DNA of 43,035 nucleotides from a virus, in IMG/VR virus record IMGVR_UViG_3300014949_000001. One strand, written 5' to 3'. Each line of letters starts with the position of its first letter. Positions within the stretch are counted from its first letter, which is position 1. Below are positions 1 through 43,035 of this stretch, in pieces. Made by a program: the position numbers and the translations under genes. The notes under the pieces were generated by a model. That model saw only the letters and a list, made by a program, of their open reading frames with translations, was not told where the DNA came from and made no database searches.

Positions 1-99
1 GCCGCTGCGCAGCGCATACAGCCCGCCGACCGTCAGCTCCACCGGCCACGGTATGATCTCCGCTCGCTTCGACTCCCACGCAATCTCTCCGCTGTTTCC
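1..99. repeat. Terminal direct repeat, left copy (identical to 42937-43035)
   Basis: Read directly: bases 1-99 equal 42937-43035 base for base. This is typical of a circular contig written linearly with an assembler overlap. Confidence 0.95.
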
Positions 100-23800: not shown

Positions 23801-24919
23801 TCACGCTCCTTTTTCCATCAGTCGTTTGTAGAACCTGTCCATCCGCCGCAGCACCCGGTAGCTGTTGCCCCGCCGCATGTGGCCGCGCCAGCTCTCGTAT
23901 GCCGTGCGGATGTCTTCCTCTGTCATTCTGCCTTCCGCCATCCATCGCCGGAAGGTCTTCAGCTTCCGCCGCATCCGCCTTGCGCTTTTGCGGCACATCT
24001 TCCGCCGCACCTTCCCCGTCTCCGTCAGATAGAATCGCGTCTTCAGGAAGTGCAGCTCCTGCAGCTTTACAATGCGCGTCTTCTTCTCGTTCATCCGGAT
24101 GCCGAGGTCTGCGCATACCGCCCGGATTTGCTTCAGGCATTCCTGCAGGTAGTCCCGGCTCTCGTGGATGAGATAGCCGTCGTCCATATATCTGCCGTAG
24201 CCCTCGATGTGCAGTTGCTCCTTGATGAAGTGGTCAAGCCGGTTTGGCAGCATCAGCGCGTCGATCTGGCTCACCTGACTGCCGAGGCCGAAGCCCCGCT
24301 CGCCAAAGTCCTCCATCAGACCGCACGCCAGCTTTCGCACCCGCTCGTCCCGGATGCGCCGCTCGCTCTCTGCGTAGATCGGCGCGTGCGGCGCGGAGTT
24401 GAAGTAGTCCGAAAAGTCGAATACCAGCGCCCAGCCGTCCGTCCCGTGCTTTCGGTAGTACCGCTGCAGGTGGCAGGTCAGCCTATCCATGGCAAAGTCG
24501 ATGCCCTTGCCCTTCAGGCTCGCCGCGTTGTCGTACACGAACGCCGCCGAGAACAGCGGCACCAGCGCGTTGTCGCACAGGCAGCGCTGCACCACCCGCT
24601 CCGCAATGTGCACGCTGCGGATGTGCCGCAGCTTTCCCCGTTCCATCAGGTCGAAGGCGAAAAAGCCCTTGGTCTTCCATGTGCCGTCCATCAGCTCCCG
24701 GTGCGTCCGGGCGATGTTGGCGGTAAAGTTTCCGAGATACCGCTGCGTGGAGCATTTCCATCCCACGCCCTTGCAGCATTCCCGTCCCGCCCGGTACAGG
24801 TGCTCGTAGCTGAATACCTGTTCAAAGCTCCCGCACGCCTCGCTGCGTGCATCTCTTCGCCGCTGGCGTTCCGCTTTTCTTCTCCTGTACCGTGCCTCGT
24901 GTCTCTCTTCGCTCGTCAT
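23801..24919 (-). CDS. DGR-type reverse transcriptase
   Basis: 372 aa. YMDD catalytic motif (GRYMDDGY) and the DGR-typical GLGSQVSQ motif. It lies 228 nt downstream of the TR. Confidence 0.92.
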   Translation of the reverse strand: MTSEERHEARYRRRKAERQRRRDARSEACGSFEQVFSYEHLYRAGRECCKGVGWKCSTQRYLGNFTANIARTHRELMDGTWKTKGFFAFDLMERGKLRHIRSVHIAERVVQRCLCDNALVPLFSAAFVYDNAASLKGKGIDFAMDRLTCHLQRYYRKHGTDGWALVFDFSDYFNSAPHAPIYAESERRIRDERVRKLACGLMEDFGERGFGLGSQVSQIDALMLPNRLDHFIKEQLHIEGYGRYMDDGYLIHESRDYLQECLKQIRAVCADLGIRMNEKKTRIVKLQELHFLKTRFYLTETGKVRRKMCRKSARRMRRKLKTFRRWMAEGRMTEEDIRTAYESWRGHMRRGNSYRVLRRMDRFYKRLMEKGA

Positions 24920-25147: not shown

Positions 25148-25280
25148 GCAGAATCCGAAGGCCACGCCATTCGCATTGCTCGCGTTGTTGTAGTTGGCGT
25201 TGCCGTTGCTGTTGACATTGCAGAAATTCGTGGAGTTGCTGCCATTCGGAGAGCGCTCCCACCAGTTGTTCGCGCTGCCG
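25148..25280 (-). repeat. DGR template repeat (TR)
   Basis: 133 bp aligning gap-free to 25808-25940 and to 39203-~39310. In the VR frame it encodes 14 Asn AAY codons. It lies in an intergenic position between avd and the RT. Confidence 0.93.
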
Positions 25281-25315: not shown

Positions 25316-25744
25316 TCATTCCGGAAGGTCTTTGTACCGCTGCCGGTCGTTCTTCTTCACCGCCGCAATGAGCTTCGCTTCCTCGCAGATGAGGTCGCCC
25401 CAGCGCTGCATCGCCTTGTGAATCCACCCGTAGCCCTCCGGGTTCTGCAAAATGCTGTCATACAGCAGCTGCAGCTTTGGGCTGAGGTTCTGCAGCGCGT
25501 TATTCGCTCGCATCAGCTCGTCCCTGCGCAGCTGCGCCTCGTGCCGGTTCGTCGGCCAGATGTTGTTTGCCGCCCGTACCCGGTCATGCACCTCGCTGCT
25601 CAGCTCCATGATGCGTCCCGTCAGAAATCGCTCGTACCGCTTCGGTGCCTTCATGCAGCACGCAAAGGTGTGTGCCTCCAGCTGCCTTGCCGTTTCGATG
25701 AACTGCACGCTGCTCTCGCCTCGTTTGGATTTGTAGACCGACAT
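25316..25744 (-). CDS. avd: Accessory variability determinant (Avd, four-helix-bundle protein)
   Basis: 142 aa from the ATG at 25744 (RBS GGAAGGGAG). Basic and helical, with ...KAPKRYERFLTGRI...RVRAANNIWPTNRHEAQLRRDELMRANNAL... It lies between VR1 and the TR. Confidence 0.8.
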   Translation of the reverse strand: MSVYKSKRGESSVQFIETARQLEAHTFACCMKAPKRYERFLTGRIMELSSEVHDRVRAANNIWPTNRHEAQLRRDELMRANNALQNLSPKLQLLYDSILQNPEGYGWIHKAMQRWGDLICEEAKLIAAVKKNDRQRYKDLPE

Positions 25745-25761
25745 GGTTCTCTCCCTTCCAT

Positions 25762-25783
25762 CCCGCAGCACACAGGCTGCGGG
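25762..25783 (-). promoter_or_regulatory. GC hairpin 3' of VR1 (DGR target-recognition hairpin candidate)
   Basis: CCCGCAGC / GCTGCGGG 8-bp stem with a 6-nt loop, 18 nt past the target stop codon. Confidence 0.7.
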
Positions 25784-25801
25784 ATTGCCTCAGATGCTGG
25801 A

Positions 25802-27460
25802 TTAAAAGCAGAAGCCGAAGGCCACGCCATACGCACCGCTCGCGGAGCTGCAGATGGCGCCGCCGTCGCTGTTGACAACGCAGAAAAACGTGGAGTCGCT
25901 GCCATACGGAGAGCGCTCCCACCAGGCGTACGCGCTGCCGTTGAACTTCTTCACCTTGCTGTTGCCCGCCTTGTAGTAGTCATACTGCGTGCCCTCGCCG
26001 CTCTTGGAATAGCTGACGCTGCCGAAAATCTCGATCTCGCTCAGCAGAAACAGCTTGTCCGCCGTGGTGTTGATGGTGGCGCTCTGACTGCCCGCCGAGG
26101 TCAGCTTGTTCACCTCCCGGATGCCGTTCTGTACCTCCGTCGGCATCAGCGCCAGAATGGCAGGCAGGTGTGTGCTTCGCATGGCGCAGCTCGTCCAGCC
26201 GCCGCTGTTGGTGTTGGAGCTGTTCATGTTCTTGGCCTCGCCGTAGCAGTCGTGCAGCTGGAAGGTCAGCGGTGCCTTCCCGCCGGATGCGTATGTGTCG
26301 TGGTTCTTGCCGATGATGTCTACCTGATAGCTCGCGCCATTGATGGTCATCGTCTTGCTGTTGCCCACCACCCATGTGCTCGGCACGCTGCCCGAATGGC
26401 ACGCCGCGATGATGGCAGCCCAGTCGTTGTCCGCGAAGTTGTCCTTCAGGAAGCTCACCGTCACCGCGCAGGTCTTGTTCGCCGGTGCGGTGTAGTTCGT
26501 TCCCGCCGCCACGCTGATGGTGATCGTCGCGCTGCCGTTGGCCTTGCCCGTCACCGTCACCGTGTTGCCCGATACGCTCACCGTTGCCGCCGCTGTGTTG
26601 TTGCTCGTGGCGCTGATCTTGCCGTCACCGCTGCGCGTCACCGTGATGGTCTTGCTCTTCGTCGTGGTGTCCAGCGTCATGCTGGCGGGGGAGATGGAGA
26701 GGCTGCCCGCCGCCTTCCCGATACTCCAGCTCACGCTCTTCGCCGTCGTCGTGCCGTCCGCCCAGCGGTAGTTGCTCTTCGGCGTGAAGGTTGCCGTGTA
26801 GCTTCCCGCGTTCGTGCCCGTGGTCGTGCCGCCGATGGTCAGCTGTGCCGTGTTGTAGTTGTTCCATGTGGGGGACTGGCTGCCGCCGTTGTAGGTCAGG
26901 CTCCCGCTCTGGCTCGGCACCGTGGAGATCGTCTTCCGGTTCACCGTCACGCCGGTGGTGGCCGTCTTGGTCACGTTCCGCTCCGTGTAGCTCACCGTGA
27001 TCGTCTGCGTGCCCACGGTATTAAGCGTCGCGGGGCTGCAGCTGTAGCCCGTCACATTGGCGGTGGCTCCGTCGGAGTAGGTGGCCTTCACCACCATGCC
27101 CGCGCTCTGGAAGCTGTCGCCATACTCATAGACCTTCTTCGTCGGCTGCGCCGTGATCTCGATCTTCGTCAGCCGGTGGATGACCGTGATGGTCTGCTCC
27201 GCCGTCTTCGTCACGCCGCCCTCTGTGTAGCGGATGGTCACCTTCGTTGTGCCGTCCGCCAGCGGTGTATTCGGCTCGTAGCTATAGCCCGTGCATTTCA
27301 GCGTCGCGCCGTTGCTGTAGGTCGCAGTCACCACCATGCCCGCCGGGTCAAAGGTCTCGCCCTGCGTGTAGGTGGTCTTTGTAGGCGGTGTTGTGATGGC
27401 GATTCCGGTCAGCTTGATGCCGCCGCCTCCGCCGCCCACCATGTTGAATACCAAACTCAT
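25802..27460 (-). CDS. DGR target protein 1: tandem Ig-like (Big_3/Big_2-like) stalk plus C-terminal lectin-fold-like variable domain
   Basis: 552 aa. Repeats ...TTPPTKTTYTQGETFDPAGMVVTATYSNG... and a Big_2-like segment. The C-terminus WWERSPYGSDSTFFCVVNSDGGAICSSASGAYGVAFGFCF is VR1. ATGA overlap with the tail-fibre gene. Confidence 0.9.
   Translation of the reverse strand: MSLVFNMVGGGGGGIKLTGIAITTPPTKTTYTQGETFDPAGMVVTATYSNGATLKCTGYSYEPNTPLADGTTKVTIRYTEGGVTKTAEQTITVIHRLTKIEITAQPTKKVYEYGDSFQSAGMVVKATYSDGATANVTGYSCSPATLNTVGTQTITVSYTERNVTKTATTGVTVNRKTISTVPSQSGSLTYNGGSQSPTWNNYNTAQLTIGGTTTGTNAGSYTATFTPKSNYRWADGTTTAKSVSWSIGKAAGSLSISPASMTLDTTTKSKTITVTRSGDGKISATSNNTAAATVSVSGNTVTVTGKANGSATITISVAAGTNYTAPANKTCAVTVSFLKDNFADNDWAAIIAACHSGSVPSTWVVGNSKTMTINGASYQVDIIGKNHDTYASGGKAPLTFQLHDCYGEAKNMNSSNTNSGGWTSCAMRSTHLPAILALMPTEVQNGIREVNKLTSAGSQSATINTTADKLFLLSEIEIFGSVSYSKSGEGTQYDYYKAGNSKVKKFNGSAYAWWERSPYGSDSTFFCVVNSDGGAICSSASGAYGVAFGFCF
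25808..25940 (-). repeat. DGR variable repeat 1 (VR1)
   Basis: 133 bp with 21 hand-counted mismatches to the TR. All are at TR coding-strand adenines. It ends one codon before the stop. Confidence 0.93.
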
Positions 27461-29259
27461 GCCGTTGCCTCCGTTCTCAGAATGTTCACGGTCAGATTGG
27501 CCGTGGGTGCTTCATTGCAGTGGAAGGTCATCTTTCCCGCCGTGGTCACATCGTCGGCGTAGATCACCGCCTCTGCGTAGCCTGCAAAGCTGTCTCCCGC
27601 AGGGCATACCGTGTAGGCGTACCCGCTCGTGACGAACTTGCTGTTGCTCACAGTCTGCGCGTTGCCGCTCCATCCCGCCGCCGTCAGTGTCACCGTGAAG
27701 GAAAGTGCCTTCCCGCTCTTGCCGTTCCAGCCCGTCCGCTCTGCCGCCGTGATGTGCGCGGTGGTGTTGCCCTCGTGATCGTCGAGGTTGCCCTGCACGG
27801 CTGCCGCAGCGCCCGCTGTCTCTTTCCCTGCAAGTGCGGTACGGATGTCGCTGTGCGCCGTACTGGAGCTGTTATGCGCCGATACCGCGCTTGCCGCCGT
27901 CCCCGTCGGGTCTGCGCCCGCCTGTGCCGCCGTCACCCGATGCGGGTTGTCCGTGTTTCCGGTGTGTGCGCCGAGGCTCGTTGCGTTGGCTTTCTTGTCC
28001 AGCTCCGTCTTCACGCCGCCGCTGGTCACGGGGTTCGTGCTGTTCGCCGTCGGGGCTGTGTCGAAGGTCAGCTTGTCCTGCTTGCCGTTCCACTTGGTGC
28101 GCTCCGCCGCTGTGATGTGCGCCGTGGTGTCGCCCTCGTGGCCGTCCAGATTGCTCTGCACCGCCGCCGCAGCGCCGGAGGCATCCGCCCCCACCATCTC
28201 CGCCGTGTAGTCGCCCTTCTGCGGCTTCACGATGCCGCCGCGCCCGTTGAAGCTGGTCACGCCACCGCCCGCAATGGCCTGTGCGCTCTCGCACCAGTAT
28301 TTGGCGTTGTTGCTGTCCTCGCCCTCGCGGGTGCCGGTGCCGCCCACCGCCCAGCTTTCGGCGGTCTTGCTGGTGGCTGCCACCTGTGTGGCGTTCTGCG
28401 CCGCCGCTGCGGCGCTTTCCTCCGCGTCTGCGGCAGCGCCCTCCGCCTTCACTTGTGCGCTCTGTGCCTTGCTCTGTGCGCTCACCGCGCCCGTCTTGGC
28501 GGTTTCCGCTGCGGTCTTGGCGCTCGTCGCCGTGCTTGCTGCCGTCTCCGCCGCCGTCTGTGCATCCTCTGCCGCGCTCTGCGCGTTTTCCGCCTTGCTG
28601 GCAGAGGTTGCCGCCGCCGTCTTGCTGCTCGCCGCTGCAGTCTCGCTGGCCTTGGCGTTCGTCTCAGCAGTCTGTGCTGCGGTCTTGGCGCTCGTTGCCG
28701 TGCTGGCCGCTGTCTCTGCCGCCGCCTTGGCGCTTCGCGCGTCTGTCGCGCTCTGTGCTGCCGCTGTGGCGTTGGTGCCGCTGGTGGAGGCGTAGCCCTT
28801 GGCGCTGCTCTCCGCCGTCTGTGCTTCTCCCGCCGCGTCCGTGGCTGTCTTGGCGCTTGCTGCCGCCGCTGCGGCTTTCTCCGTTGCGGTGTCTGCGCCG
28901 CTCTTGGCTGCGGCTGCGTCTGCGCCGGTGGTCTGTGCTGCGGTCTCCGCCGCACTCTGCGCCGCCTCCGCCGCCGTCTTGGCGTTCTGTGCCGCCGCCA
29001 GCGTCTGGCTCACCACATCGCCCTGCAGCTCGCTCAGGCTCAGCAGCTCCTGCCACTGTGTGTCGCTTTCGTACTTCCACTGCAGCTGCTGCGCGGTTTC
29101 GTCATAGCGGATGACGATAGGCTCGCCGCCGTCACCCTTCAGGCTCTTCAGCCATTCCTCCTCCGTCCCCTGAAAGCCGTGCTTCACGGCGATGCCGTAG
29201 GCGGTGATGTAATACCCGCGCCACTCGGTTCCGATCTTCGTGTTTCCGTACCCGCTCAT
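27457..29259 (-). CDS. Tail fibre protein (Ala-rich coiled-coil shaft, duplicated HEGxTTAHITAAERTxWNGK motif)
   Basis: 600 aa from the ATG at 29259 (ATGA overlap, RBS GAGGAGG). The shaft is a long A/T/S/Q/E-rich repeat region. Confidence 0.75.
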   Translation of the reverse strand: MSGYGNTKIGTEWRGYYITAYGIAVKHGFQGTEEEWLKSLKGDGGEPIVIRYDETAQQLQWKYESDTQWQELLSLSELQGDVVSQTLAAAQNAKTAAEAAQSAAETAAQTTGADAAAAKSGADTATEKAAAAAASAKTATDAAGEAQTAESSAKGYASTSGTNATAAAQSATDARSAKAAAETAASTATSAKTAAQTAETNAKASETAAASSKTAAATSASKAENAQSAAEDAQTAAETAASTATSAKTAAETAKTGAVSAQSKAQSAQVKAEGAAADAEESAAAAAQNATQVAATSKTAESWAVGGTGTREGEDSNNAKYWCESAQAIAGGGVTSFNGRGGIVKPQKGDYTAEMVGADASGAAAAVQSNLDGHEGDTTAHITAAERTKWNGKQDKLTFDTAPTANSTNPVTSGGVKTELDKKANATSLGAHTGNTDNPHRVTAAQAGADPTGTAASAVSAHNSSSTAHSDIRTALAGKETAGAAAAVQGNLDDHEGNTTAHITAAERTGWNGKSGKALSFTVTLTAAGWSGNAQTVSNSKFVTSGYAYTVCPAGDSFAGYAEAVIYADDVTTAGKMTFHCNEAPTANLTVNILRTEATA

Positions 29260-29621
29260 ACATATACCTCCTCGTGGGTATCTGCCGGACGGTAGTTGAG
29301 GGCAAACCAGCGCATGAACTCGCCGAAGAAGCTGTTGAACATCTGCATCGTGTTCTGGTATTTGTTGTACTCGCCGTTGGCGAAGTCGATCATGGCCGTC
29401 AGGTATGCCCAGTAGATTTTGTCGTGCGGCGGCTGCGCCAGCAGTTCCTTGTCCTTGTCCGCGTCGTACTGGTAGGTGATGATCTCCTCGCTCGCCCACA
29501 GTAAGACCTCGGTCTGCACCAGCCCTTCACACTCGTTCAGCCACTTTGTCTTCGCCTCGTTTGAGAAGGCGTTAGGCTTGATCTCATCTACATAGTCGAT
29601 GACGCTCTTCAGTGTCGCCAT
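29256..29621 (-). CDS. Hypothetical head-tail connector/adaptor-position protein
   Basis: 121 aa, first gene after the capsid-gene terminator, RBS GGAAAGGGGG. The call is based on position only. Confidence 0.4.
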   Translation of the reverse strand: MATLKSVIDYVDEIKPNAFSNEAKTKWLNECEGLVQTEVLLWASEEIITYQYDADKDKELLAQPPHDKIYWAYLTAMIDFANGEYNKYQNTMQMFNSFFGEFMRWFALNYRPADTHEEVYV

Positions 29622-34556: not shown

Positions 34557-36074
34557 TTATCGCTGCGGATTGCCCCAGCGTTTACGCAGCATCTCCCGCT
34601 CCGTCGGTGATGCGTTCTCATAGTCCTCCCACATGGATGCCGTCCATAGCCGCGCCACCGTTTCCTTCTGTGCGATGTAGCTCTGCTGCGGCCTGATGTA
34701 GTGTGCGATGGCAAGGCTCAGCACGCAGTCATCGTGTGCTCCCAGCTCCGCCTCCGGCTTCAGCGTCTCCGGATTGCGCACGAATGTCAGCATCTCCTGC
34801 AGCGTTGTCTCGTCGTTCACGATGGTGATGTCATCGCGCACCGCCTTGATAAGCTCCGCAAGGATGACCGGCCTCGTCTTCGTGTTGGTGAGAAAGCCAA
34901 AGCTCTGCTTGATCTTGTGCGTGTAATCGTCGATGCTCTCCCGGATGTACTGCTTCGGATACCGCAGCCGCTCCAGCTCCATCACCGGGTAAGTGGAGAA
35001 GTTGGTCTCAATGCCGATGAGCGCCGTGTTGTAGTGCAGCCCCAAGCAGTAGACCTGCCGTGCGAACACATCCTCGTCGAACTTGCCCCGCAGCACCGCC
35101 ACCTGCTCTCCAGTTCTGTTGTCCAGCACCTGCGTCACAAAGCTGTCGCTGCCTTCTCCGGCAGTGTCTCCGCCGATCACATAGGGCACGCCCTTCTCCG
35201 GCTTCTTGTAGACCTTGATGCAGCCGTCCCTCGCGTCCTCCCATCGGATGTCCGTCAGCGTCAGCCCGTCATCCGCGTATGTGAAGAGGCCGGTGCACAC
35301 CGGTTCCTTCAGCTCCTGCAGCCGTCTTCCGATGGCCTTGCCGTTGAATACCGTCTTGCCCGTCACGCCCCACATGCCGAGGCAGTAGACCTGATAGTAA
35401 TATTCGTCCGTCTCCTGAAAGCTCTCCAGCGTCCGTATGGCTGCCGCATCCAGAAAACGGTTGTCCTTGTAGGTGCTCTCGTGCACCCGCGCTCGTTTGT
35501 CCCGCCGGTCAAAAAATCGTTTCTTCAGCCAGTGCTGAATGCTGATCGGGTTGAAGCTCAGGATGATCTGCTGGTACTCCCGCGTCTTTCCGCGCAGTCG
35601 GATGTCAAGCTGGTTGAAGTCTCCCTCCAGCAGCTCGCTGGCCTCTTCAATCCAGATGCCCGTGATGTTGTAGATGGATTTCAGCTTCTCAACGTCATCC
35701 AGTCCCGCAAAGATGATCTCGCTGCCGTTTTGGAAAGAGATGGTCAGGTCTGATTTGTTGGCCTTGTACCCGCTGTCCGGGTAGAACTCCGCCAGCTGTC
35801 CCAAAAGCTGCTTGAAGCAGCTCTCCCGCAGCGTCCTGGCGACCTTCCGGCAAACCAGAAACCGGTGCCCCGGCTCTGTGATGGCCCGCTCCAGAATCTT
35901 TCGTCCCGCGAAGATCGACTTTCCGGAACCGCCGCCGCCCTTCAGAACCAGGTATCTGTGCTCGTCCCAGAACAGCGGCAGGAACGTGCGATTGTTCGTC
36001 TCCCGGAGATTCCGGAACCACAGCGCACATTCGACCTTCAGGTCAAGTTCCTTCTGCGTCTGCTTCTTCGCCAT
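34557..36074 (-). CDS. terL: Terminase large subunit
   Basis: 505 aa. Walker A LVLKGGGGSGKS, an ATPase domain plus a nuclease domain of terminase length. Confidence 0.93.
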   Translation of the reverse strand: MAKKQTQKELDLKVECALWFRNLRETNNRTFLPLFWDEHRYLVLKGGGGSGKSIFAGRKILERAITEPGHRFLVCRKVARTLRESCFKQLLGQLAEFYPDSGYKANKSDLTISFQNGSEIIFAGLDDVEKLKSIYNITGIWIEEASELLEGDFNQLDIRLRGKTREYQQIILSFNPISIQHWLKKRFFDRRDKRARVHESTYKDNRFLDAAAIRTLESFQETDEYYYQVYCLGMWGVTGKTVFNGKAIGRRLQELKEPVCTGLFTYADDGLTLTDIRWEDARDGCIKVYKKPEKGVPYVIGGDTAGEGSDSFVTQVLDNRTGEQVAVLRGKFDEDVFARQVYCLGLHYNTALIGIETNFSTYPVMELERLRYPKQYIRESIDDYTHKIKQSFGFLTNTKTRPVILAELIKAVRDDITIVNDETTLQEMLTFVRNPETLKPEAELGAHDDCVLSLAIAHYIRPQQSYIAQKETVARLWTASMWEDYENASPTEREMLRKRWGNPQR

Positions 36075-36576
36075 CGTCTTCTCGCTCCGTCATAAGCAGC
36101 GCGTCGCGTTCCTCGGCCAGCAGCGCCAGCTTGTCTGCAATGCGCAGCTCACCGGCACCCATCGAGCTGCGCGTCTTTTCGCCCAGCTCAACTTCCTGCT
36201 TCTGCCGCCAGCCGTAGTTGTTCTGCAGATTGAAGATGATACCTTGCAGTCCCTTCTCCCGTGTCAAAAGCTCCTGCTCCAGATACGCTTCAATCCGCGC
36301 TCTGGCTTCGGCTGTCACGTCTGCCAGCTCCGGATGCAGCGCGGGGTCTGCGTAGTTCTGCCAGGTGCTGCGGTCGATGCCCAGCTGCAGGCACAGTCCG
36401 GCGATCGACGGCGGCACGACATACTGCAGAAGCTGAATCTCATCGCCGTCGTCGTTCCGGATGATGCTGCCCGTGTCGTCTCTGGCCGGAATCGTGCGCG
36501 AAATGCTGCGGAAATACCGTTCCGTTTCCTCCCGCAGCTTCTTTCTGGTGTATTTTTTGGGCCTTCCTGCCGCCAT
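36043..36576 (-). CDS. terS: Terminase small subunit (GP3_package-like)
   Basis: 177 aa from the ATG at 36576 (MAAGRPKKYTRKKLREETERYF...PSIAGLCLQLGIDRSTWQNY...IIFNLQNNYGW). RBS GGGAGGTG. The longer track ORF is an N-terminal over-extension. Confidence 0.8.
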   Translation of the reverse strand: MAAGRPKKYTRKKLREETERYFRSISRTIPARDDTGSIIRNDDGDEIQLLQYVVPPSIAGLCLQLGIDRSTWQNYADPALHPELADVTAEARARIEAYLEQELLTREKGLQGIIFNLQNNYGWRQKQEVELGEKTRSSMGAGELRIADKLALLAEERDALLMTEREDDGEEADAEGT

Positions 36577-36742
36577 CTGCGCCACCTCCCGTCCCGGCGC
36601 TCTAAGGTTCCCGCGCGTGCGCACCCGTATGCGTGCGCTTGTCGTGGGGAAAAATTCAAATATACTCTCCGCACCGCTCAAATCCCGCCTAATGCGCGGC
36701 GCCCTCCCGCAGGGTCTTGCTGCAATATCGAGTGCATGCCCC

Positions 36743-36787
36743 GTCACGATGCCATGATACTGGAAAAGTCACGTCACGAAGTGTCAA
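36743..36787 (-). promoter_or_regulatory. Possible late regulatory region upstream of terS (three CGTGAC motifs, TTGACA box)
   Basis: The minus strand reads TTGACActtCGTGACGTGACttttccagTATCATggcatCGTGAC. The TTGACA/TATCAT spacing is 22 nt, which is non-canonical. Confidence 0.25.
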
Positions 36788-36806
36788 CTTTTTCGGCACC
36801 TTGCAC

Positions 36807-36835
36807 AAAAAGCAGGGCTGCACGCCTGCAGTCCC
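36807..36835 (-). terminator. Terminator after the 90-aa gene
   Basis: GGG(A)CTGCA-GGCG-TGCAGCCC hairpin with a 1-nt bulge, followed by TGCTTTTTG on the minus strand. Confidence 0.55.
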
Positions 36836-36852
36836 GCTTTTCGTTGCCCGAA

Positions 36853-37125
36853 TTATAGCTTTTTGGGGAAATCCTCGTAGTACCTTCGCACCATCCGGTG
36901 CAGCGTGGACTTGCTCAGGCAGTGCTTCATGCACACCGCCGTCGCCGTCGCGTCTGTTGTCACGAACTCAAACAGCGCCTGGTAGCTCTCCCCGCCATGT
37001 TCCAGGCACAGGTTGAGGATAACCCGCTGGTCTTCTTCCGGCAGGTCTTTGTAAAGGCGTGAGGTGAAATAGATATACCCCTGCCGGTTGTAGTCTACCT
37101 TCACGCCAGATTTGAAACGGAACAT
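36853..37125 (-). CDS. Hypothetical protein, possible late-gene transcriptional activator (C-terminal HTH-like)
   Basis: 90 aa. ...CMKHCLSKSTLHRMVRRYYEDF. Lies directly upstream of the packaging module, as RinA/ArpU-type activators do. Assignment is weak. Confidence 0.3.
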   Translation of the reverse strand: MFRFKSGVKVDYNRQGYIYFTSRLYKDLPEEDQRVILNLCLEHGGESYQALFEFVTTDATATAVCMKHCLSKSTLHRMVRRYYEDFPKKL

Positions 37126-37160
37126 TCCCTCACGCCCTTTCTCTTACGCCGTCGTCTGTC

Positions 37161-37370
37161 TCATGCGCCTGCGAAGCTCTCGCGGATGACGCCGCCGCGC
37201 ACCCGGAAGCTGACGACGTGGTATCTCCTCAGTGGGTGGATGTACGTCACCGTCCCCGTGAATGGCTTGCGCTCCTTCTTCGGCTGCTTTCTGTCTTTTG
37301 CTTGGACGATCTCCGTCTCCCCGAATGTCTCCGGGATTCTCTGTACGATGTCTCCGATCTTCATGTTCAT
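37161..37370 (-). CDS. Hypothetical protein
   Basis: 69 aa, ATGA overlap with the upstream gene. Confidence 0.5.
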   Translation of the reverse strand: MNMKIGDIVQRIPETFGETEIVQAKDRKQPKKERKPFTGTVTYIHPLRRYHVVSFRVRGGVIRESFAGA

Positions 37371-37801
37371 ATCTCCTTGATCTCGATTCCGTATCTGTCC
37401 TGCATCATCTTCCGCTTGATGATATACTTCTGTGTCCGCGTCGCCCGGCTCTTCACGTCCTCGACGATCTTCTCCCAGCCGGTCTGCGTCTTCCGCTCAT
37501 AGCAGAAGTCCGCGCAGTACCGGATGGCGCGGATGCGTCTTCCGTCCGGCGTGGTGTATGCTTCCTGCAGCGTGAAGTCCTGCTGCAGCCGCAGCTCGCG
37601 GATGAGTCCTGCCTGCAGCATGGCTTGCAGTTCCCGAAACCTTCCGGCCTCCTTCTTGCTGTCAAAGCGGATGCCCTCTGCCATCTCCGGCTCGTTCCGG
37701 TACTTCCTGGCCTTCTGTATCTGCGCTGTTTTGAGCTGAGCGAGTGCCTGCTGCTGCGCACGCAGCGGCAGGTCTTCCAGCCGTATGCCTATTGCCCCCA
37801 C
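37367..37801 (-). CDS. DUF1064-like protein
   Basis: ...KYRNEPEMAEGIRFDSKKEAGRFRELQAMLQAGLIRELRLQ...YCADFCYE...IVEDVKS... The start is uncertain (GTG at 37801 overlaps the Rep stop). The 250-aa track ORF is over-extended. Confidence 0.55.
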   Translation of the reverse strand: MGAIGIRLEDLPLRAQQQALAQLKTAQIQKARKYRNEPEMAEGIRFDSKKEAGRFRELQAMLQAGLIRELRLQQDFTLQEAYTTPDGRRIRAIRYCADFCYERKTQTGWEKIVEDVKSRATRTQKYIIKRKMMQDRYGIEIKEI

Positions 37802-38544
37802 CTCCGTCTCATCTCGAAGTGAATATAAACGCCCTTGTTGACGGCGTTGCGGACATAGCTGATGGATGTCAGCTGGTATTCCGGATACCGCTGCTCCAGC
37901 TGCACCCATGCGTTCTTTTCCTCGATGGCGTCTACCAGGCTTCCCACCTCGTCCATCGTGATCTTCCCGTCGTACTGGGCAGGCTCCGGCTGCACCAGGT
38001 TCCGGCTCTGGTTCCAGTGGCGGAAGAACAGTTTGTCCTTCGCGATATAGTGCGCAAGGCCCGTTACGCCATCCGGCCCGAACTGCAGACGGATGCTGTT
38101 TGCATAGCCGCGTCCCCACAGCTTCTCGATCTCATCGCGGTCGAGTCCGCCGCTGATGATGAGATGGTGGTGGATGCGGTTTGTCTTCTTTCCGTATTCC
38201 GTGCAGCTGATATACTTGAACTCCTTGCCGAGCTTTGTATATCTCCGCTTCAGACGGCGGATGTAATTCTGCAGATCGCGCTGAGCACCTTCTTTTGTCT
38301 CTGGCTCTTCTCCCGGCCGGTAGGTGAGATGCAGAGCGATGTCGTCTTCCGTGAAATTCGTATGTACCAGGCGCGTGAGTCTCTTCTCTGCGTTCTTCTG
38401 GTTAAGTCTTCTCTGAATCTCGCTCGTCGGCTTGCAGCGGCTGCGTCTGCGGCCTGGTTTCTGAAACACCGGATATATGTCCGCGTCCATGTAATTGCCG
38501 CAGACATATACGCTTTCGCGGATGAAGGTGCGCCCCTGATACAT
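37789..38544 (-). CDS. HUH-superfamily rolling-circle replication initiator (Rep)
   Basis: 251 aa carrying all three RCR motifs: I ALHLTY, II RIHHHLIISG, III GLAHYIAKD. RBS GAAGGAGG. Confidence 0.8.
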   Translation of the reverse strand: MYQGRTFIRESVYVCGNYMDADIYPVFQKPGRRRSRCKPTSEIQRRLNQKNAEKRLTRLVHTNFTEDDIALHLTYRPGEEPETKEGAQRDLQNYIRRLKRRYTKLGKEFKYISCTEYGKKTNRIHHHLIISGGLDRDEIEKLWGRGYANSIRLQFGPDGVTGLAHYIAKDKLFFRHWNQSRNLVQPEPAQYDGKITMDEVGSLVDAIEEKNAWVQLEQRYPEYQLTSISYVRNAVNKGVYIHFEMRRRWGQ

Positions 38545-38601
38545 GGCCCTGTGTCCTCCTTCAGAGAATGGTTGCTAAGTTAAGATTGCTTACAAGCCTT
38601 A

Positions 38602-38699
38602 ATTCGCGCGTACGCGCGAATATATAATGTATATGGCCAGCCTGCCATCGTCAGTGCCGGGAGGCTGTCCCCGGCAGACAGGGCGCAGCTGCGCCCTGT
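38602..38699. promoter_or_regulatory. Palindrome cluster in the 415-bp non-coding leader of rep (candidate origin or operator)
   Basis: Perfect 20-bp palindrome ATTCGCGCGTACGCGCGAAT (38602-38621). 7-bp stem TGCCGGG/CCCGGCA (38655-38676). Perfect 22-bp palindrome ACAGGGCGCAGCTGCGCCCTGT (38678-38699). Confidence 0.5.
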
Positions 38700-38958
38700 T
38701 TCGGCTAATGTTCTTTCTGAATGAAGTATCCTCGGCACCAGGCTGGCGGCCTTCCGTCTGCGCAGCCGTCCATTCCCGTCGGAAATAGCTGGGTAATTCT
38801 TCCATAGCAGGTACTTGGCTGCAGCATCCGGATTCCGTCCGGCCTCGGAGGTGTTTGCTCCGCTGCGCCTGCTCGGTACCCGCAGCGAAGCGCCGTCATG
38901 CTGCCCGGCTGCTCTTCGCGGAAGGCCCATGCGCAGCTGCTGCATCCCTGCTTCCTCG

Positions 38959-39132
38959 TCACGCTGGCCCCAGCTTTTCTGTCTCGCACGCTCTGGCAAT
39001 GAGCGTCCATCGCTGCTTCCATGTCATGGCCGCCGCAATGATGGCCCGCAGCCGGTCGACGCCCTCTACCTCGACCGTTCCATACGCCTTGTGCGTCACG
39101 CGCCAGCGATAGTTCTGAGCCTGTTTCTGCAT
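38959..39132 (-). CDS. Hypothetical 57-aa protein
   Basis: MQKQAQNYRWRVTHKAYGTVEVEGVDRLRAIIAAAMTWKQRW... RBS AAAGGAG plus 7 nt. The upstream part of the track ORF overlaps VR2 in another frame and is spurious. Confidence 0.55.
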   Translation of the reverse strand: MQKQAQNYRWRVTHKAYGTVEVEGVDRLRAIIAAAMTWKQRWTLIARACETEKLGPA

Positions 39133-39152
39133 CGTGCGCTCCTTTCTGCGCC

Positions 39153-39180
39153 GATCTGCACGCGCACAGGCGTGCAGATC
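39153..39180 (-). promoter_or_regulatory. GC hairpin 3' of VR2 (second DGR target-recognition hairpin candidate)
   Basis: Perfect 11-bp stem GATCTGCACGC / GCGTGCAGATC with a 6-nt loop, 16 nt past the stop codon. Same geometry and near-identical loop as the VR1 hairpin. Confidence 0.7.
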
Positions 39181-39196
39181 ATAGGTAGATTCCGGA

Positions 39197-39871
39197 TTAA
39201 AGGCAGAAGCCGAAGGCCACGCCAAACGCATAGCTCGCGTAGGTGTAGCCGGCGGAGCCGTTGCTGTAGACACCGCAGAAACGCGTGGAGTCGCTGGCAT
39301 ACGGCGAGCGGAGCCAGTACCACCATGTTCCTCTTCCCGGAACTTCCTTCACGCGGCTGCGTTCCGAGTCAAACAGTTCAAACTGTTCGTCTCCCAGATC
39401 GCCGGGCGCCCACTCAGCCGCCGCCTTTGCGCCGAACATTTCCGTAAACGACGGCAGCCACAGCTTGTCCTGCGTCTGCACTTCTTCGCCGTTGATCTTC
39501 TGCCGGATGGTGCGCGGCACGATCATCGCCTGCAGCTCTTTCGGCAGTCGAGGCAATACATCTTCGTTCAGCCACTTGCGCATCGCGCTGTCCTTCCAGC
39601 CGCCTTTGTTCGTCGCGTGGTCGTTCATTGCGCGCATCTTCTCCATGCAGTCCTTCAGTACAACCATCACGCGGCCTTCCTTCGTGACGTGCACCACCTG
39701 CGCCGTCAGCTGCTCAAACACATCATTCTCATTGTCTGCGTCCGCCTCAAGGCAGATCGGGAACTCGCTGCCGACCTCCAGCATGATTTCCGCCAGGTTC
39801 ATCTGCTCCTGCACGGTCTTCAGCTGCGCCCAGTCCGTCGTGATCGTCGTTCTTTTTGTGATGTCAAACAT
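39197..39871 (-). CDS. DGR target protein 2: standalone lectin-fold-like variable-domain protein (paralogue of the C-terminal domain of target 1)
   Basis: 224 aa with no Ig stalk, signal peptide or TM. ...GGWKDSAMRKWLNEDVLPRLPKEL...KLWLPSFTEMFG...WWYWLRSPYASDSTRFCGVYSNGSAGYTYASYAFGVAFGFCL. The C-terminus is VR2. Confidence 0.85.
   Translation of the reverse strand: MFDITKRTTITTDWAQLKTVQEQMNLAEIMLEVGSEFPICLEADADNENDVFEQLTAQVVHVTKEGRVMVVLKDCMEKMRAMNDHATNKGGWKDSAMRKWLNEDVLPRLPKELQAMIVPRTIRQKINGEEVQTQDKLWLPSFTEMFGAKAAAEWAPGDLGDEQFELFDSERSRVKEVPGRGTWWYWLRSPYASDSTRFCGVYSNGSAGYTYASYAFGVAFGFCL
39203..39310 (-). repeat. DGR variable repeat 2 (VR2), remote from the cassette
   Basis: 39203-39296 aligns gap-free to TR 25148-25241 with 16 mismatches, all at TR coding-strand adenines. 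Homology decays at 39297-39310, where there are 3 non-adenine mismatches. Confidence 0.88.
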
Positions 39872-39895
39872 ATCTTTTCCTCCTGAATCTGTCCG

Positions 39896-40231
39896 TCAGC
39901 CCATCATCTCTGCCAAATCGAGCAGCAGTCCGATGGTCTCGTCGTACTTTGCTTCCAGCCGCAGGGCGCAGTTCTCCATGCTCTCGTCTCCGAACGGGCA
40001 GGCGAAGTGTCTGGCCTCGTCGCAGACCTGCCGCCCACATTCGTTTGCCAGCTCTACGATCTCCCTGGCCCCTTTCAGACGTGTGCGCAGCTTCTGAAAC
40101 TGTTCGATCTTTGCCGGGCTTAGAACCTGATGCTCATACAGCCCCAGCTGCTGCACGAGGTCTTCTTTCTTCTCCGCGCTCCAGTACCCGCTCTTGATGC
40201 CGCTGCAGCGCTCTGCCGTCATAGCCTTCAT
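39896..40231 (-). CDS. Hypothetical protein
   Basis: 111 aa from the ATG at 40231 (MKAMTAERCSGIKSGYW...). The track ORF is over-extended into the upstream gene. Confidence 0.5.
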   Translation of the reverse strand: MKAMTAERCSGIKSGYWSAEKKEDLVQQLGLYEHQVLSPAKIEQFQKLRTRLKGAREIVELANECGRQVCDEARHFACPFGDESMENCALRLEAKYDETIGLLLDLAEMMG

Positions 40232-40235
40232 GCCG

Positions 40236-40940
40236 TCACTCCCACGCTGCGTCTGCCTTCTGCGGCACAACCTGCTTGTGATGCGCCCCGCATTTTTCGC
40301 AGTAGTAATACCGCGTGCTGCCGTCTGTCCGCTCCAGAACCCATGCGTGATTGCACTGGCTCCGGTCCGGAACCTTCGGCAGCCGCTGCTCCAGACGTTC
40401 CAGTTTCCGTCTGCGCCACTCGTCCACGGCATCCCGGCAGTCATGCAGCAGCATCATCTGCTCCAGCATGATCTGCACGTCTGCGATCTCTTCGGCGATG
40501 GCATCCGCGTTGTCCTCTCCGCGCACGCTTTTGCAAAGCTCCTTCTGCAGCTCAGAAAGTTCCTCTGCCGCCACGACGCTCTGCATCTCCGCGCCCCATG
40601 CCCGCAGCGCCCTGTTGCAGAGCGTGCGCATCTCATCGAGCGTTTCGTCGTCCAGGCCCGGCGCTGTGCCTTTGCGGTTCGCCTTGTTGAAGACGTCCCA
40701 CTGCAGCCGGTATCCTTCCAACTCCCAGAGCTTGTTCGCGATATGCTCCAGGCAGATGCGCTCGCCCGTGCGCTTGTCGTAGTTCGCCGGGTCAACGCAC
40801 GCGCTGTCGGCCGTCAGAACGAACCCGTTCTTCAGCTTCGCCGTTACCACCGTGCATTTCCCGAACAGCGTCAGTGTGCGGATGTCCGCTTCGCTGAGAA
40901 GCGCATCGATTCTATCCTTGGTGATCTTAATATCGCTCAT
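40236..40940 (-). CDS. Fusion of an N4 Gp49/Sf6 Gp66-like domain, a MazG-like NTP pyrophosphohydrolase domain and a C-terminal Zn-ribbon
   Basis: 234 aa. ...VVTAKLKNGFVLTADSACVDPANYDKRTGERICLEHIANKLWELEGY..., then ...AEELSELQKELCK...EEIADVQIMLEQM..., then CNH..CEKCGAHH. Confidence 0.55.
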   Translation of the reverse strand: MSDIKITKDRIDALLSEADIRTLTLFGKCTVVTAKLKNGFVLTADSACVDPANYDKRTGERICLEHIANKLWELEGYRLQWDVFNKANRKGTAPGLDDETLDEMRTLCNRALRAWGAEMQSVVAAEELSELQKELCKSVRGEDNADAIAEEIADVQIMLEQMMLLHDCRDAVDEWRRRKLERLEQRLPKVPDRSQCNHAWVLERTDGSTRYYYCEKCGAHHKQVVPQKADAAWE

Positions 40941-40954
40941 GGCTTATCCCTCCT

Positions 40955-41593
40955 TCACGTTCCCGGCGCCTCAATGATGCGGACGCCGTATTCCTCAGCG
41001 CAGGTGTGCTCGATCTTGCATCCGCGTGCGCCTTCCCAACCTGTTGCAAAATATGCAATATCTGCTGTTGCGAGCAGCTTCAGGCTTTCGCCCAGGAACC
41101 AGAGCGGCCGGTTGCACGCCGGGGCGTTTTCGAAGTAACTGTCGATGATCTCGACTTCGTCTCCGACGGCCTCTTTTGCCTGGCAGATCGCGACCTTCCG
41201 CTCCGCGATGATTTCCTCCTTGCTCTTGCCCTGCATGGGCTGCGATATGAATAGCTTCTTCATTCGTGTATCCTCCTTGTCTTCAAATTCTTTTAGGTGC
41301 TCGCGCAGTTCCGCGCACACCCACGCTGCCTGATAGAGCAGCCCGACTACATGTTCCGTCGTCCGAACATCATCGAAAAGCCATTCCGGCATCATCATAA
41401 TCAGGTCATCGTCAGAGATGTCTGGCTCTACATATTGGCACTGGTAGCTCAGAATCTTCCGCGTCAGATTGAGCAGGGAAATATCTGCACCGTTCTTTCC
41501 ATATTCGCGCACCCAAACCTCTTTGTCCTTGACATAAAACAGGTTGAGCGCCATTTCGAGATTGTTCTTCGGGGCATCTGTTGTGATCCTCAT
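40955..41593 (-). CDS. Two-domain protein: unknown N-domain plus DUF4406/nucleoside 2-deoxyribosyltransferase-like C-domain, with a second in-frame start at 41263
   Basis: 212 aa from the ATG at 41593 (RBS GAAGGAGGG). An internal ATG at 41263 also has AAGGAGG. C-domain: MKKLFISQPMQGKSKEEI...LATADIAYFATGWEGARGCKIEHTCAEEYG. Confidence 0.6.
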   Translation of the reverse strand: MRITTDAPKNNLEMALNLFYVKDKEVWVREYGKNGADISLLNLTRKILSYQCQYVEPDISDDDLIMMMPEWLFDDVRTTEHVVGLLYQAAWVCAELREHLKEFEDKEDTRMKKLFISQPMQGKSKEEIIAERKVAICQAKEAVGDEVEIIDSYFENAPACNRPLWFLGESLKLLATADIAYFATGWEGARGCKIEHTCAEEYGVRIIEAPGT

Positions 41594-41613
41594 ACGTTCC
41601 CTCCTTCTTGTAA

Positions 41614-42747
41614 TTATTCCGCCGCTTTGGCGGCTAGGTATCTGATCGCGTCGTCCATCGTGATTTGTTCTGCTGCATTTATCAGGGCCGCTTCCGGGTC
41701 TCGCCACTCGACGCCGATATAATCCAGCACGCGACCCCAGCCGTACCAGTTCCCGCGATCGTCCTGCATGACATGGTTCATCCACATTTCCCATTCTTTC
41801 GGGTTCCGCTCCCAGAGCCGGTCGAACCGATGCGGACGTTTCTCCATGTGTATGCCAAAGCCGCACATACTGCACCCAGTTCTCTGCGCTTTCGTTGTCC
41901 GCAGCGTTCCGTCTGCGTCTCGCGCGATCTCGCCGTAAATTTCCGGAACCGGCACCTGCAAATCTAACGCGAGCTGCAGCAGGTCTTGTCTTGAAAAAAT
42001 TGCGAATGGGCAGCTGCGCTTTGTACCTGCTGATATGTAGTTGCACCCGTGCATCATCAAAGCCTTCTGTCTGCGCCCACCTTCAGACGCCATCAGCCCC
42101 ATGTATGGAAAGCACCCAGTTTCCTTTGCATAGTCATTGCACGGCTTTTCCTTCAGGTAGTAGCAGCATTTATCCGACACAAGGAAGTCCGGCGTCATGT
42201 AGTTGACGTCCTCGCGCTCGTTTTCGTATCCGCCGAACAGCTCCAGCCACTTCTGCGCCAGCTTCATTCGTGTCCCCGTCCGGTATCCACCATAGGCCCC
42301 AGTTTCTCCAGTGATGATTGCATGACGAACCGTCGCGTTTTTCTCGCTCGGATTCTGAAGCAGCGAGATTTTCCCAGCGACCTCTTTTGAGATGACCGGC
42401 CATCCATATTCCCGCAGCACTTCGACCTTGCTCTTTAGCGGCTTCAACGGCTGCACGCCAAGCTGTTTATGCACCCTCTGGATGGACTTGTCCTCCAGCG
42501 ATGAGACAGAAACCGCAGGCACATCAATTCCGATGCTGCGCAGGAATAAAAGCAGCGTGATGGAGTCCAGGCCGCCGACTGCGACATAGCAGTTCCCTGC
42601 GACATCGGGGTGGTTGTAGAACTCCCACGCACGGATTCTCGCGTATTTCACCTTGAAGGCATAATCCATCTGCTGCTTTACGCGGAAATCAGCGATCTTG
42701 CGGTCTGTGTCCATCCGCGCGTTTCGCTCCAGCACATTCTCTTTCAC
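41614..42747 (-). CDS. PAPS-reductase-family (PP-loop ATP-pyrophosphatase-like) protein
   Basis: 377 aa from the GTG at 42747 (GTGA overlap with the upstream stop). PP-loop-like VAVGGLDSITLL, later CPFAIFSRQDL...RTGCSMCGFG. Confidence 0.7.
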   Translation of the reverse strand: MKENVLERNARMDTDRKIADFRVKQQMDYAFKVKYARIRAWEFYNHPDVAGNCYVAVGGLDSITLLLFLRSIGIDVPAVSVSSLEDKSIQRVHKQLGVQPLKPLKSKVEVLREYGWPVISKEVAGKISLLQNPSEKNATVRHAIITGETGAYGGYRTGTRMKLAQKWLELFGGYENEREDVNYMTPDFLVSDKCCYYLKEKPCNDYAKETGCFPYMGLMASEGGRRQKALMMHGCNYISAGTKRSCPFAIFSRQDLLQLALDLQVPVPEIYGEIARDADGTLRTTKAQRTGCSMCGFGIHMEKRPHRFDRLWERNPKEWEMWMNHVMQDDRGNWYGWGRVLDYIGVEWRDPEAALINAAEQITMDDAIRYLAAKAAE

Positions 42748-42905
42748 GTCCGCACAACTCCTTCCGCCTCGTCCTTCTCTCGTTTTTCCATGCACCACTC
42801 CGCGATCTCCGGGCAGTTGAACCTGCCCACGCAGACCTCTTCGTCGCACATCGGGCAGCACACCCATGGCGCCTCCCGCATATACGGGTCAACTTTCTGC
42901 TCCAT
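42744..42905 (-). CDS. Small Cys-rich (Zn-ribbon-like) protein
   Basis: 53 aa from the ATG at 42905 (MEQKVDPYMREAPWVCCPMCDEEVCVGRFNCPEIAEWC...). RBS GGGAGAG. Confidence 0.55.
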   Translation of the reverse strand: MEQKVDPYMREAPWVCCPMCDEEVCVGRFNCPEIAEWCMEKREKDEAEGVVRT

Positions 42906-43035
42906 GATCTTCTCTCCCTTCCACGCGGTACAGCCTGCCGCTGCGCAGCGCATACAGCCCGCCGACCGTCAGCTCCACCGGCCACGGTATGATCTCCGCT
43001 CGCTTCGACTCCCACGCAATCTCTCCGCTGTTTCC
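42889..43035 (-). CDS. 3' part of the junction-spanning 58-aa ORF (42937-43035 duplicates 1-99)
   Basis: Same frame as feature 1-129. Stop TGA at 42891-42889. Confidence 0.6.
   Translation of the reverse strand, partial: GNSGEIAWESKRAEIIPWPVELTVGGLYALRSGRLYRVEGREDHGAES
42937..43035. repeat. Terminal direct repeat, right copy (identical to 1-99)
   Basis: Direct comparison of the two ends. Confidence 0.95.

Follow-up and report, generated by a model that had tools for sequence, protein, structure and literature searches.

A remote second variable repeat of a phage diversity-generating retroelement, in a small DUF6273 gene among replication genes

The window analysed here is a stretch of 43,035 nucleotides (nt), IMG/VR virus record IMGVR_UViG_3300014949_000001, and is the genome of a gut phage with all genes on one strand. 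It contains a diversity-generating retroelement (DGR) with a reverse transcriptase (RT), one template repeat (TR) and two variable repeats (VRs), of which VR1 forms the 3' end of a large gene next to the cassette (target 1) and VR2, the subject of this study, lies in a small gene far from it (target 2). The features concerned are:

39197-39871, minus strand: target 2 gene, 224 aa, 25.5 kDa, isoelectric point 4.95, a single DUF6273 module (list of open reading frames, ORFs; Pfam)
39203-39310, minus strand: VR2, the TR-homologous stretch, with 39224-39301 as its hypervariable part
25148-25280, minus strand: TR, with 12 AAY codons and no hairpin after it, the sole adenine-rich copy in the window
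25808-25940, minus strand: VR1, the 3' end of target 1
25802-27460, minus strand: target 1 gene, 552 aa, with Big_3, Big_2 and a C-terminal DUF6273 domain (Pfam, PHROG)
23801-24919, minus strand: DGR reverse transcriptase, 372 aa (RVT_1, E 3.7e-13; phrog_1423, E 1e-80)
25316-25771, minus strand: Avd-like accessory gene, a 151-aa ORF between VR1 and TR (phrog_30516, E 4.6e-16)

A gap-free scan of both strands of the window with TR 25148-25241 as query revealed only three copies: besides the TR there are VR1 at 25808, with 77/94 identical positions, and VR2 at 39203, with 78/94. A repeat-family search agrees. VR2 39203-39296 aligns to the TR without gaps, and all 16 mismatches are located on TR adenines of the coding (minus) strand; with 28 adenines in the 94-nt stretch the hypergeometric probability of such an outcome is 6.6e-11. 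The initial annotation had reported this gap-free match with 16 adenine-only mismatches, and both the match and the distances given for it (13.3 kb from VR2 to VR1, 13.96 kb to the TR) are confirmed. VR1 follows the same rule, with 17/17 mismatches at TR adenines over 94 nt and 21/21 over 133 nt. The additional statement that VR2 was changed at a different subset of adenines and to different bases than VR1 is correct only in part: 4 of the 28 sites are changed in VR1 only, 3 in VR2 only and 8 in neither, but 13 are changed in both, with the identical base at 5.

Adenine mutagenesis extends further 5' of 39296, up to a TAT codon at 39299-39301, and the TR-like stretch continues to 39310; the range first given for VR2 ended at 39296 because 39297 is a non-adenine mismatch (GCC versus GGC in the TR). 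A second non-adenine difference from the window TR is found at 39305 (TCG versus TCT). Counted from the first AAT codon onward, VR2 and TR differ by 18 adenine mismatches and 1 non-adenine mismatch. The mismatch at 39209 (A in the TR, C in the VR) is common to VR1, VR2 and all relatives and hence fixed; it therefore represents the difference between the initiation of mutagenic homing (IMH) sequence and IMH*, and not diversification.

These relatives are 14 IMG/VR contigs, retrieved in a scan of IMG/VR, which encode a target-2 protein 79-94% identical to that of the window. In the DNA alignment their target-2 genes are 98-100% conserved outside VR2, while VR2 is distinct in every genome, and nucleotide diversity amounts to 0.255 in VR2 versus 0.040 upstream of it. 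An invariant VR2 among relatives, which had been named as the observation that would speak for a dead repeat, was not seen: VR2 is hypervariable at TR-adenine sites in the 14 relatives. An RT-based scan of IMG/VR recovered the cassettes of many of the same contigs, and their TRs fall into two types, type A being identical to the window TR and type B differing from it at several non-adenine positions. Four pairs of TR and VR2 on the same contig display 14/0, 20/0, 17/0 and 13/1 adenine/non-adenine mismatches. Within the type-B group 26/29 TR-adenine sites are polymorphic versus 7/71 other sites (Fisher 1.7e-14).

The two types of TR also bear on the non-adenine mismatches at the 5' end of the window VR2:

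39297-39305, minus strand: two non-adenine mismatches (39297, 39305) matching the type-B TR of relatives, relics of an earlier template

Comparison with the type-A and type-B TRs revealed that bases 39297 and 39305 of the window VR2 are exactly those of type B. The window VR2 is therefore a hybrid and not a decaying repeat, in which the 5' end stems from a type-B TR and the remainder has been overwritten from the present type-A TR, with the latest 5' crossover located between 39272 and 39297. A second TR within the window as the source of the mismatch at 39297 was considered and rejected, because the window holds only three copies and the type-B TR of relatives explains the mismatch. This hybrid shows activity in the lineage as well as a variable, homology-set 5' boundary as it is known for DGRs. 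The type-A TR has also been found in combination with a rather different RT: contig 3300045988_011281 (L044) possesses an RT 71% identical to the window RT and a TR identical to the window TR over 122 nt, so that TR and RT do not evolve in step here.

Downstream of the variable part of each VR lie putative recognition signals:

39181-39223, minus strand: GC-rich block GGCGTGGCCTTCGG (39210-39223), then IMH-like sequence CTTCTGCCTTTAATCCGGAATCT (three-way alignment)
39152-39181, minus strand: VR2 GC hairpin or cruciform, 11-12 bp stem, loop CTGTGC, no U-tract
25760-25785, minus strand: VR1 hairpin, 10-bp stem ATCCCGCAGC/GCTGCGGGAT, loop CTGTGT

The 14-nt block GGCGTGGCCTTCGG is followed by CTTCTGCYTTTAATCCRGMATCT in both VR1 and VR2 and by ATTCTGCAAGAGATGG in the TR; the IMH-like sequence is thus common to the two VRs, with ATTCTGCAAGAGATGG at its place in the TR. 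In VR2 the GC-rich block and the IMH-like sequence are invariant in all relatives. The VR2 hairpin is located in the 64-nt spacer before the next ORF (fold z-score -2.77 as DNA, -3.06 as RNA), and the hairpins of VR1 and VR2 have different stems at an equal offset and a nearly identical loop. Among relatives a GC hairpin of 8-12 bp is present 22-26 nt past the anchor in 69/95 VR copies and in 0/79 TRs, with at least six different stem sequences at the fixed offset. An interpretation of the VR2 hairpin as transcription terminator was rejected, given that it has no U-tract and that the same element occurs at the same offset from VR1. In phage BPP-1 the set of cis elements comprises a GC-rich start of the IMH, an IMH differing from IMH*, and an inverted repeat present only after the VR (PMC5758913), and the signals of VR1 and VR2 are, by sequence, this very set.

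The cassette itself contains the expected enzymatic component, as the RT possesses a YMDD motif at residue 244 and LGSQVSQ at residue 212, which fits LGxxxSQ. For the Avd-like ORF the match to phrog_3206, 'Avd protein of DGR', is weak (E 9e-4), and so is the Avd assignment; no Pfam match was obtained. In the mechanism that we propose, RNA of the TR (25148-25280) would be copied by the RT (23801-24919), presumably assisted by the Avd-like protein, into cDNA with random reading of the adenines, and this mutagenised cDNA would replace VR2 14 kb away. VR2 would be recognised via the same cis signals as VR1, i.e., the GC-rich block, the IMH-like sequence absent from the TR and the GC hairpin about 23 nt further on, and the 5' end of each replacement would be set by homology and differ between events. 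Within the final ~35 residues of the 224-aa DUF6273 (lectin-like) protein, the rewriting would randomise the 12 codons templated by AAY.

Taken together, we are highly confident that VR2 is an active target of the DGR, and the proposal of the initial annotation that a single TR serves two targets, including the remote VR2, is borne out in that VR2 is a real, non-adjacent second target. The population data already contradict the view that VR2 is a dead relic, a repeat which was formerly diversified and is no longer serviced but keeps a fossil adenine pattern. VR2 differs in each of 14 otherwise near-identical genomes, four same-contig pairs have only 0-1 non-adenine mismatches, the cis elements are intact and invariant, and the present TR has overwritten part of the window VR2. 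We regard a relic as very improbable, even if two observations would be in line with it: no read-level variation was seen in culture for Lelie and CP11 (PMC11792537), and contig IMGVR_UViG_3300045988_005966 (L001/L022) has a type-A TR, yet its VR2 fits the type-B TR (15/0) and not its own (16/6). The latter mismatch of TR and VR2 could be due to recombination (cassette swapping), chimeric assembly, or in-trans rewriting during co-infection. Ordinary paralogy of two DUF6273 genes, or an assembly artefact, without retrohoming into VR2 can practically be dismissed and is likewise already contradicted, because, even though the proteins of targets 1 and 2 are paralogues and metagenome assemblies can be chimeric (contig L009 breaks at its VR), the two genes have no alignable DNA outside the repeat and 83% identity with adenine-only differences inside it, the chance probability is the 6.6e-11 given above, and the same pattern is found independently in Shimadzu, Dulem virus 34 and Fontainebleau. 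In L009 (2535-2723) the target-2 gene breaks within the IMH at an N and is followed by a second partial VR-like copy, probably because VR heterogeneity made the assembly collapse there.

The protein that carries VR2 matches Pfam DUF6273 (PF19789) with E 3.7e-25 over residues 70-219 (89.2 bits versus a cut-off of 23.5). VR2 covers residues ~190-216 at the C-terminal end of this domain and ends ORF 39197-39871 on the minus strand, at the extreme C-terminus as previously described. Target 2 and the C-terminus of target 1, whose gene sits directly after the gene of a 680-aa tail protein, are 38% identical over 156 aa (E 4e-28); both are Pfam DUF6273, and the claimed paralogy to the C-terminal domain of target 1 only is thus supported. 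We found no immunoglobulin (Ig) domains in target 2 in a Pfam scan, no transmembrane-like segment (maximum Kyte-Doolittle value over 19 residues 0.98) and an N-terminus that is not signal-peptide-like, and the reported lack of an Ig stalk, a transmembrane segment and a signal peptide is therefore upheld.

The DUF6273 family is large and variable in its architecture. Its profile matches 8,263 cluster representatives, many of which are stand-alone proteins of 205-240 aa with full profile coverage, and some clusters contain thousands of distinct sequences. Other members, of giant size, contain as many as 12 copies in tandem, which include the N-terminal ~60 residues, and in one bacterial giant protein the DUF6273 copies are interleaved with Listeria-Bacteroides repeats. 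The whole 214-residue unit hence recurs both stand-alone and in tandem. Because the N-terminal ~60 aa recur within the tandem copies, they are part of the module and no separate adaptor or docking domain. An AlphaFold2 model of target 2 based on a 50-sequence alignment displays one compact module (mean predicted local distance difference test, pLDDT, 93.9); it replaces an earlier model from a shallow 30-sequence alignment (pLDDT 62.6), the fold search of which was meaningless. The sole PDB neighbour of the model is the DUF6273 domain of 9qa6, an IgA protease of Thomasclavelia ramosa in which this domain is N-terminal (PMC12402451). Neither the PDB fold search nor the PDB profile search with target 2 returned a lectin, Mtd or TvpA match; the C-type lectin fold of DUF6273 targets has been assigned by PMC10743442. 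The viral structural neighbours in BFVD likewise contain DUF6273, some as stand-alone proteins and others as part of fibre-like ones.

The novelty originally claimed for the locus was overstated, since the layout with a large and a small DUF6273 target is published for Shimadzu, nd4/nd12, Lelie, CP11 and Toutatisvirus, and a catalogue from 2018 lists non-adjacent second targets in prophages (PMC5758913). A close counterpart is orf43 of Shimadzu (LR596903; bioRxiv 10.1101/575076), a small stand-alone DUF6273 protein of 209 aa, 34% identical to target 2, with a VR at its 3' end (15/15 mismatches at TR adenines) about 13 kb from the TR; its gene lies between a DNA methyltransferase gene and Erf/SSB/replication-initiation genes and has a GC hairpin after the stop codon. 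The first target of Shimadzu is, like that of the window, a tail gene adjoining avd-TR-RT, and both VRs were rewritten in culture and in mice (bioRxiv 10.1101/575076). In contrast to the window, Shimadzu is a myovirus with another backbone, and the annotation of its large target reads tail fibre rather than Ig-repeat protein. The Faecalibacterium phages Lelie/Toutatisvirus and CP11 likewise combine one TR with a large Ig-bearing DUF6273 target and a small DUF6273-only target, with the VR at the domain C-terminus in both (PMC11792537; bioRxiv 10.1101/2024.10.15.618418). In Lelie and CP11 both VRs vary among cognate IMG/VR genomes (PMC11792537); the second target of Toutatisvirus, 17.5 kb from the TR, is a core gene which persists in DGR-less phages (bioRxiv 10.1101/2024.10.15.618418). 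These phages represent lineages different from that of the window (CP11 has ~36 kb versus 42.9 kb here), and the papers on them contain no analysis of cis elements, replication-module context or swapping of TR types.

The DUF6273-only proteins nd4_tgt2 and nd12_tgt2 (234 and 294 aa) are also second targets of one TR (Baykov et al. 2023, PMC10743442). They are each made up of one globular domain, to which the authors assign a C-type lectin fold with the VR as a C-terminal surface beta-hairpin, and a Mtd-like receptor-binding role is favoured for them (PMC10743442). Their partner 'tentaclin' has an N-terminal lectin domain with the VR near the 5' end, whereas the order in target 1 is reversed, with Big_3/Big_2 first and DUF6273 last, and target 2 is without Ig domains; neither protein of the window is accordingly a tentaclin. 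With the Mtd system of BPP-1 the window shares TR adenine mutagenesis, a VR at the 3' end of the gene, the GC-rich block and IMH, the variable 5' boundary, and a GC inverted repeat which follows the VR but which the TR lacks (PMC5758913). Mtd itself, however, is a protein of 381 aa with N-terminal beta-prism and beta-sandwich domains that dock on the tail fibre, and is encoded next to the cassette; target 2 has no docking domains and no detectable similarity to Mtd, lies 14 kb from the cassette, and differs in these features from a Mtd-like fibre tip. The window thus adds one more lineage to a two-target arrangement that has already been described, and what is new here is the position of the small gene in the replication module in 9/9 lineages surveyed.

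This position was found for stand-alone small DUF6273 genes throughout a sample of podo-like, sipho-like and myovirus genomes (P22-type, SPP1-type and contractile-tail), the window included; in each of them the gene is located in a module of replication, recombination or DNA-modification genes. In the other lineages its flanking genes are:

Shimadzu: DNA methyltransferase and Erf/SSB/Rep
Dulem virus 34: methyltransferase and Rep/DUF4406
Fontainebleau: DNA polymerase I and helicase
L109/L110: Gp49/Tad2-like ... Rep
L115: methylases ... Rep, DUF1064
L113: RecT, SSB, methylase, HNH ... PAPS reductase, DUF1064
L114: Sak, SSB, replisome organiser, PAPS reductase ... DUF1064, ParB-methylase
L116: SbcC-like, DnaB_2, DnaC-like ... 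SAM synthetase, dUTPase

The 3' end of the small gene is a VR of the phage's own TR in Shimadzu (15/0 adenine/non-adenine mismatches), Dulem virus 34 (15/1) and Fontainebleau (15/0), and a GC hairpin follows the VR in these three phages. In L113-L115 the start codon of the small gene overlaps the upstream gene, which is in line with its expression together with the replication genes. A tblastn search with the small proteins of Shimadzu and Fontainebleau revealed no further annotated phages. L113 possesses two stand-alone small DUF6273 genes (7001-7636 and 13228-13887), 6 kb apart in the same replication block and with a common 3' flank, one with an Asn-rich, TR-like tail (…NNSNYFCNVTSSGNSCNNYANASNG…) and the other with a diversified tail. 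In contigs L076-L096, which have an RT ~60% identical, a small second target of 228 aa is found ~6 kb downstream of the RT, past the endolysin, at ~17.0-18.0 kb; a separate GC hairpin of 10 bp with loop GTCA belongs to it, and its N-terminus, for example in L090 (17019-17705), contains an added CxxC motif (MYKYCPHCGKPF).

In the window the genes are arranged in the following blocks:

Block 1: IS30-like integrase, DUF3846, SSB
Block 2: PAPS-reductase-like, nucleoside deoxyribosyltransferase-like, Gp49+MazG, one ORF
Block 3: target 2, then a 57-aa ORF
Block 4: HUH-type Rep, DUF1064, two small ORFs
Block 5: small and large terminase, portal, capsid, tail protein
Block 6: target 1, Avd-like gene, TR, RT
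Block 7: endolysin, internal virion protein, 4,009-aa polyvalent protein
36805-36844, minus strand: predicted intrinsic terminator with A-tract, GC stem and U-tract, after the last ORF of the replication module and in front of the small terminase gene

The neighbours of target 2 are those named by the initial annotation (Gp49 and MazG, here as a fusion, a PAPS-reductase-like gene and the HUH Rep), to which the deoxyribosyltransferase-like and DUF1064 genes can be added. The predicted terminator separates the unit of target 2 from the packaging and structural genes, and a terminator-like site is predicted at the same position in the relative L109. A scan for sigma-70 promoters showed no enrichment near target 2. 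A promoter-like site (ATGGCA, a spacer of 16-18 nt, TATAAT or TATATT) was observed at 38619-38648 (minus strand) in the window and at 7052-7079 (plus strand) in L109, where it follows target 2 and the small ORF and immediately precedes Rep; it is the only such site that recurs in the relative. Target 2 may end one transcription unit and Rep begin the next.

In our opinion target 2 is somewhat more probably a free-standing binder, made together with the replication genes, than a built-in part of the tail, because it has no anchoring domain, because its gene occupies a replication-module position in every lineage examined, and because a predicted terminator precedes the terminase genes. The position in all nine lineages favours the off-virion idea without proving it. 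For the earlier description of a free, cytoplasmic and early binder this means that the replication-module position has been strengthened, while the words free, cytoplasmic and early are read from gene position alone.

Several points weigh against a free-standing binder. Gene position is circumstantial, and in phage P22 the tailspike gene likewise lies at a distance from the remaining structural genes. The promoters and terminators were called solely by match to a consensus. Elsewhere, DUF6273 modules occur on the virion or the cell exterior, as in target 1, the secreted IgA protease 9qa6 and bacterial giant proteins, and some of the BFVD neighbours of target 2 are annotated as tail-collar fibre or receptor-binding protein. 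The published authors favour a receptor-binding role for the small target (PMC10743442; bioRxiv 10.1101/2024.10.15.618418).

On the other hand, the small protein might be a second virion-borne receptor-binding or adhesion protein, attached to tail or head like Mtd on the tail fibres of BPP-1, which would provide the phage with two independently diversified binders. We consider this a possibility to be taken seriously, if only tentatively. Most DGR targets of phages are tail proteins (PMC8144416), target 1 has the same module as its tip and its gene beside a tail gene, and the annotations in BFVD as well as the role proposed by the published authors are in accordance with a place on the virion. 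Difficult to reconcile with such a place are the missing anchoring domain, as the N-terminal ~60 aa belong to the repeated module, the lack of any sequence or fold match to Mtd, the fact that the gene is never found within the structural module in 9 lineages spanning three tail types, and the predicted terminator between target 2 and the late genes.

A more specific version of the free-standing binder, which we consider rather unlikely, is that target 2 would be a non-virion, DGR-programmable soluble binder acting inside the infected cell, where it would, e.g., capture a variable protein of host defence or surface biogenesis. It would be co-expressed with genes for replication, DNA modification and counter-defence (methyltransferases, PAPS-reductase-like, MazG, Gp49/Tad2-like) and would be the phage-side counterpart of bacterial cytoplasmic sensors diversified by DGRs. 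These sensors of multicellular bacteria (PMC10907252) provide a precedent for an intracellular DGR-diversified binding domain in a conflict system; unlike target 2 they are multidomain proteins with a FGE-sulfatase-type lectin fold, and thus a functional analogy and not relatives.

Among the neighbouring genes, the Gp49/MazG fusion (40236-40940, minus strand) joins a MazG-type NTP pyrophosphohydrolase to an N4 Gp49 / Sf6 gp66 domain. The Gp49 domain of relatives (L109 4106-4657) is encoded four or five genes upstream of target 2 and co-matches the Pfam family 'Tad2-like', a counter-defence sponge family. An IS30-type protein with HTH_38 and rve domains (2652-3704, minus strand) is kept beside DUF3846 and SSB in L109 (1-802) and L115 (196-1251), and may be a phage integrase or transposase rather than an inserted insertion sequence. 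The ORF of 4,009 aa (4905-16934, minus strand) contains a PBECR5 nuclease (E 9e-50), an ART-PolyVal ADP-ribosyltransferase (E 1.6e-23), LPD23 and LPD3; it may encode an ejected multi-toxin or counter-defence protein, because it lies after the gene of the internal virion protein. The gene of the 680-aa tail protein (27457-29499) features a long run of degenerate 21-nt (7-codon) Ala/Thr-rich repeats at 28375-29014 (minus strand) and a 96-nt duplication at 27718 and 28081 (83% identical), and the repeats look like a repeat-built fibre shaft. The first 99 nt of the window (1-99) are identical to its last 99 nt (42937-43035), so that it represents a closed circle or a terminally redundant genome of 42,936 bp, which agrees with the ~42-kb size of relatives. 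A megablast of 36000-43035 against GenBank phages gave no match, so that this phage lineage is not represented there, and in the host scan of genome contigs the sole match was an 'uncultured Clostridia bacterium' metagenome-assembled genome.

No natural system other than DGRs is known to rewrite a protein binding site on demand, and the DGRs of phages have been read almost entirely as switches of receptor specificity. In the lineages examined here, the genes of a very abundant family of DGR targets, small and built of one module, are placed among genes for replication and DNA modification. The window provides a clean test case, with one TR, two targets, complete recognition signals on both and many near-identical relatives, in which the differences between type-A and type-B TRs act as a natural 'marker' recording where each rewriting event stopped. 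If the small targets act off the virion, phage DGRs would serve a second purpose, and an intracellular programmable binder, if true, would be a real surprise.

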